Assembly (NCBI GenBank): GCA_043745445.1
Contig: JAYTSX010000244.1
Coordinates: 1 to 54,682, forward strand
DNA from: Elusimicrobiota bacterium
Lineage (GTDB): Bacteria > Elusimicrobiota > Elusimicrobia > UBA1565 > UBA9628
DNA: 54,682 nt
Direction of reading: 5' to 3'
Of this stretch, positions 17,796 through 25,072 are shown piece by piece. Numbering within the stretch: position 1 is the stretch's first letter; every line of letters begins with the position of its first letter. Made by a program: the position numbers and the translations under genes. The notes under the pieces are model-generated. The model saw nothing but the letters and a program-made list of their open reading frames with translations. It did not search any database and was not told the DNA's origin.

Positions 17796-19208
17796 ATGAG
17801 CGTTCGGATCCATATCGCGGGACCGAGAGCCGGCCTGTTCGATTCTCGTTCGAGCGGCTTCCAACGGCATGCCCTGCTTGACGCCGTTCTCGGGCCATTG
17901 CTTTGTCCGGATGACGACAAAGGCCGGGGACTCCTCGAGTCTTGGCGTTCGAGCGACGACCTTCGCCTTTGGACCTTGCGGCTACGCTCCGGACTCCGAT
18001 TCCACACGGGACGAGCGGTGACGGCGCAGGACCTCGTCTTTACCTTTTCCCACATTCTTGCCTGCCCTCATGAGACGCCGGACAAGACTCTCCTGAGAAA
18101 CATCGCGCGGGACGGCGTGCGCGTCACCGGCGACAGAACGGTCGAGGTGGCGCTCGAGCAGCCTGACTCCAATTTCGCCCTCCTCATCAAGGACAGTTTC
18201 TACTCGATCGTACCGGAGGAGGAACTGCTTCCATCCGGTTCGGGGCTCGACGGGCCTTCGTCCAACTCGGGTTCGCATCTCGCTTGGAAACGCCATCCGG
18301 TCGGGGCCGGTCCGTATCGAACGGTCCGCGTCTCGGACGACGGCGCGGTCGTCGAGACGGAAGCGGCGCGCGACCTGCCCGAAGGCGCGCCGAAGAGCAT
18401 CCGTTTCTCGACCGGAGATTGCCCGCCCGATGCGGACGTGGCGCTCGGGTACGACGACAATCCGCTGCCCGGCCGCCTGCGCAAGAACGTCATCGACACC
18501 CCACTTGCGATCATGGGCCTGTATTTCGATTACACGCACCCCCTGGCGCGAAACGCCGATTTCAGGGTCGCGGTCTCCCTGGCGCTGGACCGCGCGGCGA
18601 TCAGCGCCTTGGTCGAGGACTCCAAACCCGCGAACGGCATGATCCCTTCTGATTTCTTGGCGAAATTCAAAAAGAAGCCGGCCCCTCCCCCCGGGCCCGA
18701 CCCGCGCCGGGCGGCGGATTTGTTCAAAAAGGTCATGGGCGCTTCGCTCGATTCTCCGGTCGCGATTCCCGTCGGAAGCCGCGCCATCGACGGACAATTT
18801 CCTCCATGGATCGTCGCGGTGGAGAAACAGATGAACCAAGCCGGCTTCCCCGCCCGCATGACGCCCGGCCGGGGCACGGCGCCGTTTTCAGTCGCCGGTT
18901 TCATCCCGGGAATACCGGATCTCGGCCGACTGTTCGCATTGTTCCGTGAAGGAACGGGGTGGGTCTCGCGTCTCGATGAACGCGATGGGGTCTACGACGA
19001 GCTGCTCGCCCGCGCCGCGACGCTCCGGGACTCGCCGGAACGCGAAGAGGTCCTGCGCGCGCTGAACGAACGCTTTCAGGCCCGCGCCTACGCCGTGCCC
19101 CTCTACGAAGAGCCGGTCGTGCTTTGGACCAATCCGGCTCGAGTGGCGTCCATCGGAGCGCGCCAAGGCATAAGCCTCGCTTACGAACGCCTGAGAATCA
19201 CCCCTTAA
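17796..19208 (+). CDS. Family-5 (peptide/nickel) solute-binding-fold protein without signal peptide
   Basis: WTLRLRSGLRFHTGRAVTAQDLVFTF, PVGAGPY and FRVAVSLALDR. No hydrophobic N-terminus. Confidence 0.75.
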   Translation: MSVRIHIAGPRAGLFDSRSSGFQRHALLDAVLGPLLCPDDDKGRGLLESWRSSDDLRLWTLRLRSGLRFHTGRAVTAQDLVFTFSHILACPHETPDKTLLRNIARDGVRVTGDRTVEVALEQPDSNFALLIKDSFYSIVPEEELLPSGSGLDGPSSNSGSHLAWKRHPVGAGPYRTVRVSDDGAVVETEAARDLPEGAPKSIRFSTGDCPPDADVALGYDDNPLPGRLRKNVIDTPLAIMGLYFDYTHPLARNADFRVAVSLALDRAAISALVEDSKPANGMIPSDFLAKFKKKPAPPPGPDPRRAADLFKKVMGASLDSPVAIPVGSRAIDGQFPPWIVAVEKQMNQAGFPARMTPGRGTAPFSVAGFIPGIPDLGRLFALFREGTGWVSRLDERDGVYDELLARAATLRDSPEREEVLRALNERFQARAYAVPLYEEPVVLWTNPARVASIGARQGISLAYERLRITP

Positions 19209-19209
19209 A

Positions 19210-20676
19210 TTGATACAACTGTCTCGGCGACGAATCGTGACGGCCGTCGTCGTCTGCGCGGCCGCCGGCCTCTTCCTCGCTCGAACCGGCCGCCGCAAGG
19301 CCGCATCACCCCCGAGCAAATCAATGGATCGCTATACCATCGCCTACGAGATCAAGTTCGAGGACTTCGACCCGCATTCTTTTACATCATACGCCAAGTA
19401 CGTGATCCTCCGCCAAATCTTCGAAACCCTCGTCCGAGTGGACGACAGCCTGAACGTCGTGCCCGGTCTCGCCGAAAAATGGAGCATCGACAGGGACGCG
19501 GGTGAGATCACCTTCTATCTGAGGTCCGCCCGCTTCCACGACGGCTCGCCCGTCACGGCGCTGGATGTCCGCGACTCGCTCCGCCGCGCGGCGCGCTTGG
19601 GCGCCCTCCAACGGCCTTCCGACGTCATCACTGCGGTCGATGAAAGGACGTTGAAGATAAAGATGTCTTCCGGCGCGGCGGAAGAGCTCCTGAGGAGTTT
19701 GACCCTCATCTATGCCGGCGTCGGAAAAGCCTCGACCGCGAGCGCGAACGGCTTCGTCGGCTCGGGCCCCTACCGCCTCGCATCTTACGACGCGAAGTCG
19801 GGGGCCGTCGACCTCGAACAATTCAACGGCTATTACCGGACGGTGCTTCAACCGCGACGCCTGGAGTTCCGGTGGGTATCGACGGCACGGATACACGAGG
19901 CCTTCGAACGCGGTGAAGTAGATGAGTTCGACACCAACAATTACCCGCTCGATGGAAACGCGACGGCGCCCGGAAGAAAGGTGGCCCTCTATTTCCCGAT
20001 GACGCGCTTCCTTGTCTTCAACCTGCGCTCCAACGTGTTCCGCGGCGTGGAGAACCGGAGGGCCTTCGTGTCCGCCTGGCCGAAGAAGTCGATTTCCAAA
20101 GAGCTCTATCCCTTCAGCGCGCCGGCGACCGGGCTCATTCCCAAGGGACTGTTGGGACACCTGAACGAAGAGGACGCGCGGCTGCCTCCGACGAAGCGCG
20201 ACCTGAAGGAGGAAGTGACCATCGGGACGGGCAATGCCTCCGAAGCCAGCGTACTTGAGAAAGAGCTCGCCCGCCACGCTCCCGGGCTCCGGGTTCGCCT
20301 GCGCGTCTACGCCCTTCAAGAGCGCATCATCGCCGACATCACGAATGGTTCCCTCGATGGCCGGATTTTCGGCAATTCGCCGAAGGACTTCGACGCGCGG
20401 TCTCTGCTGGCGACATTTACGTCGGGCCATCCGGTCAACATCTACGGCATCAAAGACGCCGGGTACGACGCGATCATCGACTCGCTCACGGGTAAAGACG
20501 AGGTTTCGCGGGAAGCCGCCCTAAAAAAGGCGGATCGACATCTGCTTCAACAGGCCTACCTACTGCCCCTCAGCTACACGCAGAGCTACCGCATCGTGCA
20601 TCAAGATTGTCCCGACGCCATCTGCGGAGATCACTTCCAGATCTGGGACCGCCAGTACGTCGGTGAAACGCCATGA
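19210..20676 (+). CDS. Family-5 ABC-type solute-binding protein with N-terminal anchor/signal
   Basis: SRRRIVTAVVVCAAAGLFLA; IFETLV, PGLAEKW, FHDGSPVTALDV and GSGPY. Confidence 0.82.
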   Translation: MIQLSRRRIVTAVVVCAAAGLFLARTGRRKAASPPSKSMDRYTIAYEIKFEDFDPHSFTSYAKYVILRQIFETLVRVDDSLNVVPGLAEKWSIDRDAGEITFYLRSARFHDGSPVTALDVRDSLRRAARLGALQRPSDVITAVDERTLKIKMSSGAAEELLRSLTLIYAGVGKASTASANGFVGSGPYRLASYDAKSGAVDLEQFNGYYRTVLQPRRLEFRWVSTARIHEAFERGEVDEFDTNNYPLDGNATAPGRKVALYFPMTRFLVFNLRSNVFRGVENRRAFVSAWPKKSISKELYPFSAPATGLIPKGLLGHLNEEDARLPPTKRDLKEEVTIGTGNASEASVLEKELARHAPGLRVRLRVYALQERIIADITNGSLDGRIFGNSPKDFDARSLLATFTSGHPVNIYGIKDAGYDAIIDSLTGKDEVSREAALKKADRHLLQQAYLLPLSYTQSYRIVHQDCPDAICGDHFQIWDRQYVGETP

Positions 20677-22343
20677 GCGAAAAGATCTCCTTCCGAGAGA
20701 GCATCATCACTCATGTACGGACCGGTCTCGTTCTGAGCACGCTGGCCCAGACGCTGATAACGCTCCTGCTGGCCGTTGCGTGGACGAACCGGAACATCGA
20801 AAACGAGGTGACCGGGATCGGCAGACAGCTCTCGCCCGAATTCGCCGGCGCCCTCAACGTCGACAACACGGTCGCGATCGTCGGCCGGCTCCAAGGGCTC
20901 GTGCAGCGCAAGCCCATCGTAGCGGCCCGTGTTCTGGGTCCTCAACTGGAGCTTTCGGCGTCCGCGGCGGGTCGAGCGCCGGGAACGCCGTCCGCTCGCT
21001 TCGTCACGCGAAGCTTCCCGCTGCCGACCGCGCAATCGGTTAAAGGCGATTATGCCCTCATCATCGTCGCCGACAGGCTCAGCTATTGGCCGCAGATCGC
21101 CCTTGCGATGCTCGCAATACTGAGTCTGGGCGTCCTGACGTACCTCGTGCTGACCAAGTACGTCAACGCGGCCGCGCGCAAAATCGGCGCGCCGATCGCC
21201 GAGCTCTCCGCCCATCTCGAGCGGGACGGCCTCGTGTCCGCGATCGACGGACACGAGTCGATGGAGATCGCCGAAATCTCGGTCATGATGCGGGCGCTCA
21301 GCGACGCTCAGACGCGCCTGTTCGACGTTCAAGACAAGATTCGCGAGGCCGAGGTCGACAAGAGTCTTTACCAGCTCGCCTCCCAAGTCGCTCATGACAT
21401 CCGTTCGCCATTGGCCGCGCTCGACGGCGCCATCGGCGACGCGGGACAAATGCCGGAAGACCAGCTCTCCCTGGTCCGCACCGCGACCGGGCGCATTCGC
21501 GACATCGCAAACGATTTGCTCGACATGCGGCGCGACAGGCGGGGGACGGCGCCGCCCACGATTCAATCTCTTGCCGCCGTGATCGAACCGCTCATCGCGG
21601 AAAAACAGATGCAGTACCGCTCGAAGCCGGGCGTCCGCATCGAGTGCAGGATCGTCGATGAGGCTCGCCGGATCAGCGCGCGAATCAACTCCGCGCAATT
21701 TGCTCGGGCGCTCTCCAACGTCGTCAACAACTCGATCGAAGCGCTCGGGGACGCGCCTGGGCGCGTCGCGACGAGTCTCTCGATTCAAGACGGCGACGCT
21801 CTCGTCAAAATCGAAGACGACGGGAAGGGCATCCCCCCGCACATACTCGAACGCCTCGGTCGGGACGGAGAAACTCACGGCAAGGAAGGAGGCTCGGGGC
21901 TGGGCCTGTATCACGCGAAAAGCTCGATCGAGTCGTGGGGCGGCCGCTTCGAGATCCAATCGGAAGCCGGCAAAGGAACGCGCGTCATTTTTCGAATCCC
22001 CATCGTCGCGACGGACGGCCCGCGGCGCACCGCGAGCGTCTTGATCGACGACGACCCGCTCGTTCAGAAGGTCTGGCTGATGGTGGCCAAGTCCAAAGGA
22101 GTGCCGCTGGCGGTCTTCTCGAGCCCGGCGGAATTCGACTCTTCGACGGAAGTGGCGAACACGGCATCGACGATCTTCATCGACTCCGAGCTTGCGGACG
22201 GCGTCAAAGGGGAGGAGTTCGCGGAACGACTTCACACCCGGGGATTCGCCAATTTATACCTGGCCACGGGAAAGTCCCCCGATTCCTTCCCCCCCATGCC
22301 CTGGATCAAAGGCGTCGTCGGGAAGGAAGCCCCCTGGCGCTAG
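20673..22343 (+). CDS. Membrane hybrid sensor histidine kinase with C-terminal receiver domain
   Basis: Two TM segments; H-box QVAHDIRSPL, N-box NVVNNSIEA, DDGKGI and GSGLGL. Receiver motifs LIDDD...FIDSEL...LATG...GK. Confidence 0.9.
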   Translation: MSEKISFRESIITHVRTGLVLSTLAQTLITLLLAVAWTNRNIENEVTGIGRQLSPEFAGALNVDNTVAIVGRLQGLVQRKPIVAARVLGPQLELSASAAGRAPGTPSARFVTRSFPLPTAQSVKGDYALIIVADRLSYWPQIALAMLAILSLGVLTYLVLTKYVNAAARKIGAPIAELSAHLERDGLVSAIDGHESMEIAEISVMMRALSDAQTRLFDVQDKIREAEVDKSLYQLASQVAHDIRSPLAALDGAIGDAGQMPEDQLSLVRTATGRIRDIANDLLDMRRDRRGTAPPTIQSLAAVIEPLIAEKQMQYRSKPGVRIECRIVDEARRISARINSAQFARALSNVVNNSIEALGDAPGRVATSLSIQDGDALVKIEDDGKGIPPHILERLGRDGETHGKEGGSGLGLYHAKSSIESWGGRFEIQSEAGKGTRVIFRIPIVATDGPRRTASVLIDDDPLVQKVWLMVAKSKGVPLAVFSSPAEFDSSTEVANTASTIFIDSELADGVKGEEFAERLHTRGFANLYLATGKSPDSFPPMPWIKGVVGKEAPWR

Positions 22344-22462: not shown

Positions 22463-23410
22463 CTAGCTAAATGCCGCGCTTGATTCGCATTCCGCGAGCA
22501 ACTCACCGCCCAGCGCGGTCAGCTTGACGCCGGACTCACGCAGCGCCCGAGCGCCCGAACGCAACGCTTCGTCGATTTGCCCAATCCGGACTTCGAGGCG
22601 CGCGCGGCGCTGACTGGACAGGGCCGAATCGCCCAGCGCTTGGACGGCGAATTCTTTCATGTACGCGAGGGCGACGAGCGCGTGGAAGCTCTTGATCGCG
22701 GGGCGATGTTCGCGTCGGATCGCCGAATAAACGGGGGCGCGCAGATCACCATCGATGATGGGGTCCGCGTTCTGATAGACCATCAGCGCTTGATGGCCCA
22801 TCTCGTGCGCCAGATTAATCGCCAACTCGACGTCGCCGTGCTCCTCGACTTCAGGCAGATCGATGATGATTCCGCCTCGATAGAGATGGCTGCTGACGCC
22901 GCGGCCGTAGGGACTGCGGCCCCTCAGCGGGGGCCGGGCGCCCATCGGTATCACCTGCTTGACGAATTCGGCCGCGCGCGCGGCCAGGGATTCGTCGGCG
23001 CGGACGATCCAATCAAGCGCGGCCGGCACGGCCTGGGCGATCCGCGCGGCCCGACTCATGTCCAAGGTCTCGACGCACAGCCCTGTGGCTTCAGCGATCC
23101 CCAAATGTCCCAAGTGAAGATCCGGCGACGAGCTGAACGCGTCGTTCAGGAAAGACAGCGTCGCCGCGTCCGAGACGACCCGCGCGCCGCCGACGGCATC
23201 CGAAGCAGCGTAGTCCGAGGACGCGAAGTATCCAAGCCGCTCATGACAGCTCATCCACGGCCGATACTCCAGGAACTCCGAGCGGACAGCGCTATTCGCC
23301 CGTTCGAGGCTCTTGCGGTTCAGCTCGATCGACAGCTTGATCGCCCGCTCGGAGCCCTGGAGGCCGGTAAGCCAGCGTCCGGGGTAACGCCCCCGAACAC
23401 CGCGGCTCAC
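22463..23410 (-). CDS. HEXXH-motif protein, alphaKG-HExxH-type peptide beta-hydroxylase family
   Basis: NLAHEMGHQAL followed by VYSAIRREHRPAIKSFHA, matching the family pattern HExxH...S.(W)R...RP.....H. GTG start overlaps the stop of the upstream small ORF. Confidence 0.78.
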   Translation of the reverse strand: MSRGVRGRYPGRWLTGLQGSERAIKLSIELNRKSLERANSAVRSEFLEYRPWMSCHERLGYFASSDYAASDAVGGARVVSDAATLSFLNDAFSSSPDLHLGHLGIAEATGLCVETLDMSRAARIAQAVPAALDWIVRADESLAARAAEFVKQVIPMGARPPLRGRSPYGRGVSSHLYRGGIIIDLPEVEEHGDVELAINLAHEMGHQALMVYQNADPIIDGDLRAPVYSAIRREHRPAIKSFHALVALAYMKEFAVQALGDSALSSQRRARLEVRIGQIDEALRSGARALRESGVKLTALGGELLAECESSAAFS

Positions 23411-23583
23411 TTCGAGAAGGAGTGGTCGGTCAGGTCGGAATGAGTGATCGCGAAATCAGGCTTGATGGCGCTCATGAGCCGATCCATCATCAATTCGTCC
23501 GCGGTCTTCGGCTGCGGCGCCGGTGCGGTCTTCAAGGCCGCCATAGCGACAACGATCCCTAAGTAGTTAGCGATTTCATTCAT
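23407..23583 (-). CDS. 58-aa small peptide, candidate precursor/substrate of the HEXXH enzyme
   Basis: SD GGAGAGG (23593-23599) before ATG 23583. Sequence MNEIANYLGIVVAMAALKTAPAPQPKTADELMMDRLMSAIKPDFAITHSDLTDHSFSK. GTGA coupling to the HEXXH gene. Confidence 0.72.
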   Translation of the reverse strand: MNEIANYLGIVVAMAALKTAPAPQPKTADELMMDRLMSAIKPDFAITHSDLTDHSFSK

Positions 23584-23607
23584 GTGCCTGTACCTCTCCA
23601 GTAGACT

Positions 23608-23650
23608 AAACAAAGAGAAGGGACGGAGCGCAAGCGCTCCACCTCTTCCC
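23608..23650 (-). terminator. Terminator-like hairpin of the riboswitch expression platform
   Basis: GGGAAGAGGUGGAGCG-CUUG-CGCUCCGUCCCUUCUC (16-nt arms, one mismatch, GU pairs) followed by UUUGUUU. Confidence 0.6.
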
Positions 23651-23712
23651 CTGGTCTCATCCCGTTGAGGCGGGATCGTGGATACCCCGGGGCCGATTCC
23701 CCGAGCTACAGG
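23650..23712 (-). ncRNA. Purine-family riboswitch aptamer variant, 2'-dG-II-like
   Basis: CCUG-UAG-CUCGGGG-AAUCGG-CCCCGGG-GUAUCCACG-AUCCCG-CCUCAA-CGGGAU-GAGAC-CAGG. Three-way junction, GG/CC kissing loops, UCCAC (C at position 51), C74 and a lengthened J3/1. Confidence 0.7.
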
Positions 23713-23719
23713 CAGTTTT

Positions 23720-23763
23720 ATCATACACCACTGCGCGACGGGCCGCAGGTGTCTAAAGGCCTA
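23720..23763 (-). promoter_or_regulatory. -10 box TATGAT (23720-23725) plus degenerate upstream palindrome (23748-23763)
   Basis: The -10 box puts +1 at about 23713, the first base of the aptamer region. The palindrome GGTGTC-TAAA-GGCCTA lies 22 nt upstream of it. Confidence 0.5.
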
Positions 23764-23899: not shown

Positions 23900-24037
23900 A
23901 TGAAGACTGAACTGAAGCAGACCGCGAGCCTCGACCTGAACCTCTTCAACGTTTCGGGCGAGTTCGAAGACATCGAGATGGTGATCAACGAGCTGTCCGG
24001 CAACGTCGAGATGTCCATCATGTCGCGCCGCTGCTGA
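23900..24037 (+). CDS. 45-aa RiPP precursor-like peptide (not in ORF track)
   Basis: SD GGAGG 23890-23894. Sequence MKTELKQTASLDLNLFNVSGEFEDIEMVINELSGNVEMSIMSRRC*. Strong GC3 bias; first gene of the modification operon. Confidence 0.85.
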   Translation: MKTELKQTASLDLNLFNVSGEFEDIEMVINELSGNVEMSIMSRRC

Positions 24038-24046
24038 TCGGATCGA

Positions 24047-24074
24047 GCTGGGGGGCGCGGCAGCGCCCCCCAGC
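24047..24074 (+). promoter_or_regulatory. Perfect 12-bp stem-loop between the precursor and the enzyme genes
   Basis: GCTGGGGGGCGC-GGCA-GCGCCCCCCAGC, no U-tract. Confidence 0.75.
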
Positions 24075-24097
24075 CACCATCACTTCAAGGAGGCTCC

Positions 24098-25072
24098 ATG
24101 CCCCACACGAATCTCATCACCGTCTCATCGATCGAAAGCGGCGCCCTGGACGGCGCCTTCATCCGGCGGGAATTGCCGGTCATCCTGAAAGGCGCGTGCC
24201 GGAACTGGCCCGCCTTCGACAAATGGACCCCCGATTTTTTCAAGCGGATCTACGGCAAGATCGAGGTCCCGATGAGCAACTATAAGATGGATCCCTATCA
24301 GCTCCAGACGCAGAAAGCGGCCATGCCGATCGAGGACTATCTGGACGGCGCCCTTCGGATCTCCGCCGGGCGGACCGGAGAGAACGAGAACCTTTATTCG
24401 GCCGGCTGGTTTTTCTGCAACGGGCACTGCGAACTACTCAAAGACGTCGCCGTCCCCTCCTACTTCGCGGAGAACTGGGCGGACCGGGTGCAGAAGGTGA
24501 TCCATTTCGACACGCGTTCGATCTTGTTCGGACATCCGAAAGTCGAGAGCCCGCTGCACACCGACTCGTTCTTCGTCAGCACCTATTTCGCGATGCTCAA
24601 GGGCCAGAAGCGCATGCGGCTTGTGGGGCCGGAGCACAGCGCGCACGTCAAGAACGGCTTCAACGTCTACGACGACGAGCGGGTTCGCGAGCTCGGCGCT
24701 AAGGGCGTTCCGGTCTACGACGCGGTGGTCGAAGAGGGCGATATCGCCTGGTTCCCGCCGGGCTGGTGGCACCATGTGAAAAACGACTCCTTCACCATCT
24801 CCATGACCACGAGCTTCGTGTCCTCCCATCACTTCCTGCCGTTCGAGCAGCAGGTGCGGGCGACCTTGATCAAGCCTCTCCTGCGGCTGGCCCAGGTCAA
24901 GGACGAAGTCCTCGAGCGCGCCTTTGACGGCGAGAACCTGGATCATTCGACGAAGGTCCTCGACGACGCGCACTACCTGCGCAACGAGACGCAATATGTC
25001 GGCTTCACGAAATCGGAGTTGGAGAAGACGGACCGGTTGCTCGAGCGTCTGCAGGACCGGCAGGCGGCGTGA
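24098..25072 (+). CDS. JmjC/cupin-like Fe(II)/2-oxoglutarate oxygenase
   Basis: SD AAGGAGG. Motifs PVILKGACRNWPAFDKWT, HxD (PLHTDS), GQKR and EGDIAWFPPGWWHHVKN. Confidence 0.88.
   Translation: MPHTNLITVSSIESGALDGAFIRRELPVILKGACRNWPAFDKWTPDFFKRIYGKIEVPMSNYKMDPYQLQTQKAAMPIEDYLDGALRISAGRTGENENLYSAGWFFCNGHCELLKDVAVPSYFAENWADRVQKVIHFDTRSILFGHPKVESPLHTDSFFVSTYFAMLKGQKRMRLVGPEHSAHVKNGFNVYDDERVRELGAKGVPVYDAVVEEGDIAWFPPGWWHHVKNDSFTISMTTSFVSSHHFLPFEQQVRATLIKPLLRLAQVKDEVLERAFDGENLDHSTKVLDDAHYLRNETQYVGFTKSELEKTDRLLERLQDRQAA

Follow-up and report, generated by a model that had tools for sequence, protein, structure and literature searches.

A 2'-dG-II riboswitch in Elusimicrobiota that probably controls a putative peptide/hydroxylase operon

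Contig JAYTSX010000244.1 of the Elusimicrobiota assembly GCA_043745445.1, 54,682 nucleotides (nt) long and referred to here as the window, carries on its minus strand a purine-type RNA aptamer that belongs to the 2'-deoxyguanosine-II (2'-dG-II; 2dG-II in Rfam) class of riboswitches. We consider it probable that this leader (23716..23646) is a functional 2'-dG-II riboswitch, acting as a transcriptional ON switch for a translationally coupled operon that encodes a small peptide together with a predicted peptide hydroxylase.

Class membership is confirmed by covariance models. A scan with the Rfam models (cmscan) matches family RF03165 (2dG-II) with 73.7 bits (E = 4e-17), against a gathering score of 60 bits. 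The alignment spans model positions 1-71 of 71 with no insertions or deletions and with posterior probabilities of '*' throughout, and a lineage model (R1), built from 36 copies of the element, scores the window aptamer at 80.5 bits. No other Rfam family reaches its gathering score, or an E-value of 1 or below, anywhere in the 54.7-kb window. A first-pass annotation had placed a purine-riboswitch fold, with stems P1-P3 and a kiss between the GG of loop L2 and the CC of loop L3, at 23650-23712, inside the present match. It had described the RNA as a '2'-dG-II-like' variant that comparison with the Rfam models could verify; the comparison upholds the fold and the class, and only the reservation in '-like' falls away, since the leader is a full member of the class by covariance model. 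The 6-nt loops that it had taken as the sign of a variant lose their force because the RF03165 consensus itself has 6-nt loops.

In the RF03165 alignment, P2 comprises 7 base pairs (bp; 23705-23699 with 23692-23686) and P3 comprises 6 bp (23676-23671 with 23664-23659). L2 and L3 are each 6 nt long, with GG closing L2 and CC opening L3. The joining segment J2/3 follows the pattern G[U/C]AUCCAC in 118 of the 125 distinct copies assembled across the lineage (described below). J3/1 aligns without gaps to the five positions of the model, showing that the class-typical 2-nt insertion is present; its GAGA-C form is found in 27 of those copies. The first-shell bases are all kept, with U at model position 9 (U22), C at position 37 within AUCCAC (C51) and C at position 63 (C74). 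These three columns are invariant in the 36 copies, and the window copy retains every invariant aptamer column; the A77-equivalent at position 62 is also present. The P1 pair next to the junction is G-C (G8-C64), as it is in all 35 distinct rows. The C74, the U51C change and the lengthened J3/1 to which the first-pass annotation pointed are therefore all borne out. The minimum-free-energy fold of the aptamer segment alone is the three-way junction, at -27.3 kcal/mol, and the whole leader folds better than its own shuffles (z = -3.85).

In the sections of PMC6847200 drawn on here, C51 is given as the mark of the nucleoside-binding classes, U22/C51/C74 forming the 'UCC' group. The same sections define 2'-dG-II by U22/C51/C74, the 2-nt J3/1 insertion, the G-C pair of P1 next to the junction, and an invariant U75 that pairs with A24. 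The window RNA has the first three of these features and departs from the fourth.

Table 1. Positions of the riboswitch, the operon and the neighbouring genes in the window
Feature	Coordinates	Strand	Evidence
2dG-II purine riboswitch aptamer, P1-P2-P3 three-way junction with L2/L3 kiss	23646..23716	-	RF03165, lineage model, covariation
J2/3, GUAUCCACG, with C at the U51 position	23677..23685	-	RF03165 alignment
J3/1, GAGAC, 5 nt, ending in the C74-equivalent; first inserted base A	23654..23658	-	RF03165 alignment
Possible -10 box TATGAT, 3 nt 5' of model position 1	23720..23725	-	Sequence; inference only
Intrinsic-terminator-like hairpin (model-numbered 66-103) with UUGUUU tail	23608..23651	-	Terminator scan, fold
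Shine-Dalgarno sequence GGAGAGG (23599-23593), then UACAGGCA (23592-23585)	23585..23599	-	Sequence
58-residue open reading frame, candidate precursor/substrate peptide	23407..23583	-	Open reading frame calls, two homologs, complex model
315-residue putative alpha-ketoglutarate-dependent HExxH-type (aKG-HExxH) peptide beta-hydroxylase	22463..23410	-	TIGR04267, conserved residues, ChlH profile match
Two SBP_bac_5 genes (17796-19208, 19210-20676) and histidine kinase (20673-22343), convergent	17796..22343	+	Pfam
Divergent unit: 45-residue open reading frame (23900-24037), then JmjC/cupin_8, weak SBP5-like, major facilitator superfamily (MFS), ThiF-like adenylyltransferase and ATP-binding cassette (ABC) ATPase-like genes (24098-29994)	23900..29994	+	Library scans

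The structure is further supported by covariation, which the first-pass annotation had named as a test of its proposal. The Rfam structure was counted on an alignment of 36 aptamer copies, of which seven belong to the window's genome and 29 to its relatives. Paired cells make up 90.7% of the total, compared with 78.4% in shuffles, and 16 of the 23 pairs show double changes; the observed values were reached by none of 500 shuffles. When the pairing partners were slid by one to three columns, pairing was at most 58.8%. P2 is 100% paired and P3 99.5% paired across the alignment, and in P1 the inner five pairs are kept, whereas most copies lack the outer three. The GG of L2 and the CC of L3 are invariant, and so carry no covariation information either way.

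The riboswitch is repeated within the genome and in its relatives. The window's genome (3.15 Mb in 369 contigs) holds seven RF03165 matches, six above the cut-off and one, on contig C139, at 59.9 bits. Among 61 genomes of the genus, family and order, the window's own included, 44 have a match, 41 of them above the cut-off, with up to nine copies in a genome; matches below the gathering score in this set, other than that on C139, were left out of the copy set. An even draw of 151 genomes across the phylum gave 15 with a match, nine above the cut-off, concentrated in the window's order and in one further family (6/7), with no match in two large families of the sample (0/45 and 0/44). Another family, f20 (genomes G106, G111, G127, G130 and G133), gives only sub-threshold matches of 44.5-50.3 bits, which might represent either plain guanine riboswitches or a further group of variants.

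The host named by the assembly agrees with the genes of the window: the nearest named homologs of a DEAD-box helicase, at 87, 77 and 75% identity, all carry the label Elusimicrobiota. On this ground we rejected for the window's genome the idea of a predatory bacterium using prey DNA as a signal, which had come from a distant HExxH homolog in a Bdellovibrionales record (L045). As far as the relevant parts of a 2017 review go (PMC5473149), 12 members of the class were then known, all metagenomic and not assignable to a lineage; part of another source (PMC8872408) puts the class in Bacteroidetes. A literature search found no paper joining the 2'-dG-II class with Elusimicrobia or Bdellovibrio.

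The departure from the published class concerns the A24 and U75 sites. The window aptamer has G at position 11 (the A24 site, third position of J1/2) and A at position 60 (the U75 site). The first-pass annotation had noted that junction bases differ; they do, at J1/2 position 3 and at the first inserted base of J3/1, which are not the positions on which it had argued. We followed the two sites through the 36 copies and 86 further ones, all matches being aligned with the model built from the 36 (129 rows, 125 distinct). Among the distinct copies the combination at positions 11 and 60 is G/A in 64, A/U in 22, G/C in 18, A/A in 15, G/U in three and something else in three, so that the window's type is the majority type of the lineage. 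U is found with hardly any base but A, and C with hardly any but G, so that positions 11 and 60 co-vary in the manner of a tertiary pair. The Rfam consensus prints the U in lower case, indicating that the current model does not treat U75 as invariant.

The frequency of these subtypes differs between families. In the window's family, f1, made up almost wholly of the window's genus (n = 91), there are 55 G/A, 16 G/C, 12 A/A and three A/U copies; in two sister families A/U accounts for 20 of 36. Subtypes are mixed inside genomes, G000 for example having four G/A and three G/C copies, and also among copies that precede orthologous targets, one such cluster comprising nine G/A, three A/A and one A/C and another five G/A and three G/C. 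G/U and A/C copies likewise stand beside G/A, A/A and G/C copies within orthologous downstream families. A/U and G/A do not occur together in any cluster of at least three members. The presence of mixed subtypes before orthologous targets argues, short of proof, for tuning rather than for a new ligand. We read the junction subtype as lineage drift that probably tunes affinity; a changed ligand is less likely.

Downstream of the aptamer, the leader has the elements expected of a switch that acts on transcription. A terminator scan finds an upper stem (23643-23622) and then a U-rich tail directly 3' of the aptamer. In the minimum-energy fold of the leader this stem reaches down as far as G66-G69 in the 3' strand of P1, in place of P1 itself; the leader folds at -52.0 kcal/mol with this extended terminator, compared with -46.5 kcal/mol when the aptamer is enforced. 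The terminator hairpin alone has -23.8 kcal/mol in full and -14.6 kcal/mol without the shared bases. The same arrangement is seen in 31 of the 36 copies: of the eight bases that end the aptamer, 5-8 are taken up by a hairpin, and a U-rich tail (at least five U in 9 nt) comes after it; in the window copy seven of the eight bases are paired. Because the terminator uses the 3' strand of P1, we infer that the riboswitch switches transcription on.

At the 5' end, the possible -10 box would give a start site at about model positions 2-6, much as the first-pass annotation had supposed when it placed +1 at the aptamer start; a sigma-70 scan, on the other hand, returned no promoter sites and there is no -35 element. 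No fixed-position motif is common to the 126 upstream regions compared. A motif, CTTT[A/G]GACACCTGCG, is found at 23741-23757 on the minus strand and again some 30-45 nt upstream of the aptamer on G000:C156, at an equal distance from the aptamer. The copies on C244 (the window) and C156 are the most similar in the genome, and the motif may be a shared promoter or operator, or the trace of a duplication.

At the other end of the leader, the sequence UACAGGCA between the Shine-Dalgarno (SD) sequence and the AUG is complementary without a mismatch over 8 nt to the 5' strand of P1 and J1/2 (model 3-10; 23707-23714), and an 8-nt complement was reached by two of 200 shuffles. Such a complement at the ribosome-binding site was rejected as a family feature, complements of at least 7 nt being found in just two of 126 copies, and in the window it is either due to chance or specific to this copy.

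The operon behind the riboswitch begins with the SD sequence and the 58-residue open reading frame (ORF), 63 nt beyond the aptamer. The N-terminus of the peptide is hydrophobic and resembles a signal peptide, and the C-terminal part, RLM..KP.FA...SDLTD.SF.K, is conserved. It belongs to no Pfam or NCBIfam family, and a search of 1.84 billion representative sequences gave two small homologs, of 68 and 62 residues (P0027 and P0028; 49% and 47% identity). Across the three sequences 23 columns are invariant, mostly in the C-terminal half, and the hydrophobic N-terminus is common to them; a tblastn comparison of the peptide with 21 HExxH loci gave nothing meaningful. A short ORF adjoining an enzyme gene, with an SD sequence, a stop codon that overlaps the next start and a conserved C-terminal half, is the pattern looked for in the precursor of a RiPP (a peptide made by the ribosome and modified after translation), and it is found here.

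The second gene starts at a GTG that overlaps the TGA stop of the peptide gene (GTGA). Its 315-residue product matches NCBIfam TIGR04267 (IPR026337) with 62.3 bits, the curated cut-off being 40 bits; residues 130-308 cover positions 3-177 of the 177 in the profile, and no Pfam family is matched. His202, Glu203 and His206 of the HExxH motif, together with Arg232, Arg236 and His243, are invariant in 21 enzyme homologs, and the family profile matches ChlH (8s5f_A) with an E-value of 1.8e-10. In the portion of PMC12636437 used here, aKG-HExxH enzymes as a group are described as hydroxylating Asp, His or Gln of RiPP precursors; ChlH, which has been characterised, acts in this way on the Asp and His of one such precursor. 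The closest homologs of the window enzyme (P0002-P0008) are 59-68% identical to it, except P0007 at 46%. Upstream of several distant HExxH genes (L055, L057, L058/59 and L060) there are short ORFs with a L..LL..vDP.F/Y motif.

A model of the enzyme-peptide complex supports, short of demonstrating, binding between the two products. It scores 0.93, the best of three controls reaching 0.08; that mark is attained by 58 of 80 solved complexes and, among 110 mismatched pairs, by two. Contacts agree between runs to at least 99%, with a predicted local distance difference test (pLDDT) value of at least 71 for the partner. In the modelled interface, peptide residues 29-58 contact enzyme residues that include 199, 202, 206 and 243. 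The proposal of the first-pass annotation that the riboswitch fronts a peptide-modification operon gains from both the TIGR04267 assignment and this model; hydroxylation of the peptide and its export are predictions, and a signalling role may be supposed.

Taken together, these features suggest the following mechanism. Without ligand, G66-G69 would be taken into the base of the terminator hairpin (23651-23614), which is followed by the U-rich tail, and transcription would stop ahead of the genes. Binding of 2'-deoxyguanosine, the presumed ligand, or possibly also of guanosine, would hold P1; the pairs at the foot of the hairpin, beside the U-tract, would then be lost, and the polymerase could read on into the two-gene, translationally coupled operon for the 58-residue peptide with its signal-peptide-like N-terminus and the HExxH beta-hydroxylase. 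The alpha-ketoglutarate-dependent enzyme would dock on the conserved helix of the peptide and bring the His/Asp-rich C-terminus (THSDLTDHSFSK) to the metal site. A comparable logic operates in the pbuE/ydhL adenine riboswitch, where a ligand-stabilised P1 competes with a downstream terminator and so turns the genes on. The window RNA differs from it in ligand class, and in that its P1 and terminator overlap by only a few bases.

Several observations weigh against this mechanism, and three other explanations must be set beside it. P1 of the window copy has four Watson-Crick pairs (model 5-8 with 64-67) and then a G-G mismatch at pair 4. This 4-bp helix shares only two to four bases with the terminator, so that the ON logic is less clear-cut than in most copies. 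When the aptamer is enforced, a 34-nt hairpin and U-rich run survive, and this truncated hairpin followed by CUCUUUGU could still cause termination. Given also the perfect complement of model 3-10 that lies beside the start codon, and its low frequency among shuffles, the aptamer might be real and yet no longer gate transcription, the central hairpin terminating or attenuating regardless of P1 and control being translational, through the complement, or absent. We regard this as very unlikely. The use of the P1 3' strand as the terminator base is common to 31 of 36 copies and involves seven of eight nt in the window; loss of the lowest four pairs shifts the stem 4 nt off the U-tract and costs 9 kcal/mol; the invariant aptamer columns are all intact; and the complement, as noted, is not shared by the family.

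The junction subtype raises a different objection, which leaves the fold and the switch as proposed and concerns the ligand. Position 60 is A where PMC6847200, in the sections used, reports an invariant U75; in env1 of that study A24 and U75 form a Hoogsteen pair, and the U75A change costs 46-fold in affinity for 2'-dG. The G24/A75 subtype might therefore have shifted to guanosine or to another guanine nucleoside or derivative, in which case the operon would report something other than DNA breakdown. Several points fit such a shift: positions 11 and 60 do not vary independently in the 125 distinct copies; members of the class already differ widely in selectivity between 2'-dG and guanosine (PMC6847200, same sections); and the canonical A/U is rare in the window's genus (3/91) and common in the sister families (20/36). 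On the other hand, U22, C51, C74 and the A77-equivalent are retained, single genomes contain more than one subtype (four G/A and three G/C in G000), and orthologous downstream families carry subtypes side by side, as would fit one shared signal; with no cluster of three or more joining A/U to G/A, this chain does not reach as far as the published type. A changed ligand therefore seems to us unlikely, and 2'-deoxyguanosine the better candidate.

The remaining doubts concern the cargo. The N-terminus of the peptide (MNE...) has no positive charge, unlike those of its two homologs, which makes export uncertain, and the complex model was built on a shallow peptide alignment of three rows. The gene pair is rare, the HExxH enzyme occurring in two of 101 genomes of the order and two of 401 in the phylum sample. 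The second enzyme match, itself weak (E = 1e-6), has no riboswitch. Nor was a riboswitch found at any of 21 more distant HExxH loci examined: 19 metagenome loci, with enzymes 27-45% identical (one 64% over 44 residues), gave no Rfam match at gathering score, and loci L044 and L045 gave none at E-values of 0.1 or below. Public sequencing runs containing the stretch comprise four DNA runs from one sediment-metagenome study, which may be its source, with no RNA run listed. It might also be supposed that the operon makes no modified peptide, the 58-residue ORF encoding an ordinary small secreted or membrane protein, or being untranslated, and the HExxH protein being a zincin-type peptidase that acts on other substrates. 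A peptide that has no family and just two small homologs among the 1.84 billion representatives, and a signal-peptide-like N-terminus unusual for RiPP precursors, would suit this explanation; HExxH is moreover classically a protease motif, and PflC is described as also proteolytic in the cited portion of PMC12636437. It is nevertheless unlikely, as the enzyme lies above the TIGR04267 cut-off and its profile matches the characterised beta-hydroxylase ChlH, its start codon overlaps the stop of the peptide gene, and it is through its conserved part that the peptide touches the enzyme in a complex model far above its controls. Distant HExxH genes have short ORFs with a related motif ahead of them, and sister modules pair YcaO or radical SAM enzymes with similar small peptides. 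We therefore retain a peptide substrate and its hydroxylase as the probable output of the switch.

Comparison with the env1 aptamer, known from a crystal structure (Matyjasik and Batey 2019, PMC6847200, as far as its relevant sections go), shows the same junction, L2/L3 kiss, U22/C51/C74, 2-nt J3/1 insertion, G-C P1 pair and A77-equivalent. The window RNA is distinguished from env1 and other published 2'-dG-II RNAs by G in place of A24, A in place of U75, a 4-bp P1, and downstream genes for a peptide and a hydroxylase. Unlike the lineage-less members described in the consulted part of PMC5473149, it also has a host, named as Elusimicrobiota through homolog names. The 2'-dG-III riboswitch, a sensor of guanine nucleosides that works as a genetic ON switch according to part of Hamal Dhakal et al. 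2022 (PMC9295807), and the guanine-I riboswitch share the purine-riboswitch scaffold with the window RNA. The best match of the latter in clan CL00123 is nevertheless 2dG-II (only the best overlapping clan member being reported), and its J2/3 and J3/1 are those of class II. The aKG-HExxH hydroxylases ChlH (PDB 8s5f), BpmH and PflC/PosC resemble the window enzyme in their TIGR04267 domain, the HExxH motif with a distal His, and an adjoining small ORF. The window operon, as predicted from its genes, differs from these systems in having no cyclophane-forming enzyme, a putative substrate with a signal-peptide-like N-terminus, and riboswitch control. The first-pass annotation knew of no riboswitch of this family before a RiPP-like operon, and in keeping with this none of the papers reached by our literature search links the 2'-dG-II class, or any riboswitch, with RiPP-like precursor genes.

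The wider regulon was surveyed by a Pfam census of the first sizeable ORF downstream of 116 of the 126 copies outside the window, 10 copies without an ORF of at least 90 residues being omitted; each ORF is one heuristic choice per copy, and in GC-rich DNA its frame may be wrong. SBP_bac_5 was found behind five copies, Response_reg behind four (three of these being sigma-54 activators) and Radical_SAM behind three. FGE-sulfatase, Lactamase_B, alpha/beta hydrolase and NACHT domains were each found behind two copies, and Peptidase_S8, PLD and Phosphatase behind one each. None of these families has more than five members, and many of the downstream ORFs start like secreted proteins or lipoproteins. 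The copy at G000:C246:4153-4223 (minus strand; L012) stands before a gene for a sigma-54-dependent response regulator and one for a protein with a sigma-54 DNA-binding domain, which suggests that the nucleoside signal may feed a transcriptional cascade.

Peptides and modifying enzymes recur in other riboswitch-controlled modules. In G011 the order is riboswitch, 50-residue peptide, SBP_bac_5, a YcaO-like enzyme (33.3 bits; cut-off 25.7) and a hybrid histidine kinase, and in G026 it is riboswitch, radical SAM enzyme, 93-residue ORF, SBP_bac_5 and kinase. G004, G035 and G006 have the same layout as judged from ORF order and kinase similarity, not all of their genes having been scanned for families. 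The peptides of G004, G035, G006 and G019 are alike, with MNKK followed by a hydrophobic stretch, and three of the four have a C-terminal Cys motif. Since these modules too combine a peptide with a tailoring enzyme, the peptide-tailoring theme is recurrent and its HExxH version rare. The lineage-wide 2dG-II regulon, as it appears from these gene annotations, would consist mostly of secreted proteins with no known function, hydrolases and regulators of the sigma-54 or receiver kind, and would repeatedly include modules of peptide, modifying enzyme, SBP5-type protein and kinase.

Five loci, L065 (G011:C56), L066 (G004:C7), L067 (G035:C32), L068 (G026:C24) and L069 (G006:C71), have a further peculiarity in that two 2dG-II riboswitches converge across 5-6.7 kb. 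One of the facing pair heads the operon of peptide, SBP5-type protein, YcaO (or radical SAM) enzyme and kinase, and the other precedes a conserved protein of about 150 residues that has no family. A receiver-domain gene identified with Pfam lies just outside L065, and receiver-like ORFs, which were not scanned, are similarly placed at L066, L068 and L069.

According to the part of PMC5473149 on which we draw, the class was known from about a dozen metagenomic fragments without hosts and with little gene context, and for this reason the use that cells make of a deoxyguanosine signal had stayed open. With a full-scoring member in an assembled genome that has seven copies, and relatives with up to nine, it is now possible to read the regulon. 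If the link between riboswitch and operon is true, production of a modified peptide depends on a product of DNA breakdown. The more than 120 natural aptamer variants of the lineage, with their co-varying A24/U75 pair, also bear on how affinity and the selectivity between 2'-dG and guanosine are tuned. The known fold and mechanism of the class are unchanged by the window element; it belongs to a known class, and we found no earlier description of its junction subtype or of its gene association. A more extensive nucleoside-gated circuit can be imagined, in which deoxyguanosine from degraded DNA would lead to an exported peptide, tailored by the HExxH enzyme (by YcaO or radical SAM enzymes in the sister modules) and read by SBP5-like proteins and a hybrid histidine kinase, and in which G24/A75 may have retuned the preference away from 2'-dG; as a whole we hold this to be improbable.

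The convergent genes on one side of the operon are of types seen in the sister modules. SBP_bac_5 and kinase genes sit inside the riboswitch-controlled modules of relatives, and the window kinase is 34-42% identical to the module kinases of five of them. In the window these genes are not directly behind the riboswitch, so that any link with it is putative. On the opposite side, the divergent unit shares its intergenic region with the riboswitch operon and lies outside riboswitch control. Its 45-residue ORF has a strong SD sequence, GGAGGAACCA, before the ATG and a GC-rich hairpin after it. Judged by its genes, the unit resembles another set of precursor and tailoring genes and may belong to the same peptide cluster. 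At the HExxH loci L046, L048, L054 and L062, the end of the ORF just upstream of the enzyme gene resembles, by eye in the translations, the C-terminal end of SBP5-type proteins, whose like may thus accompany HExxH enzymes well outside the lineage.

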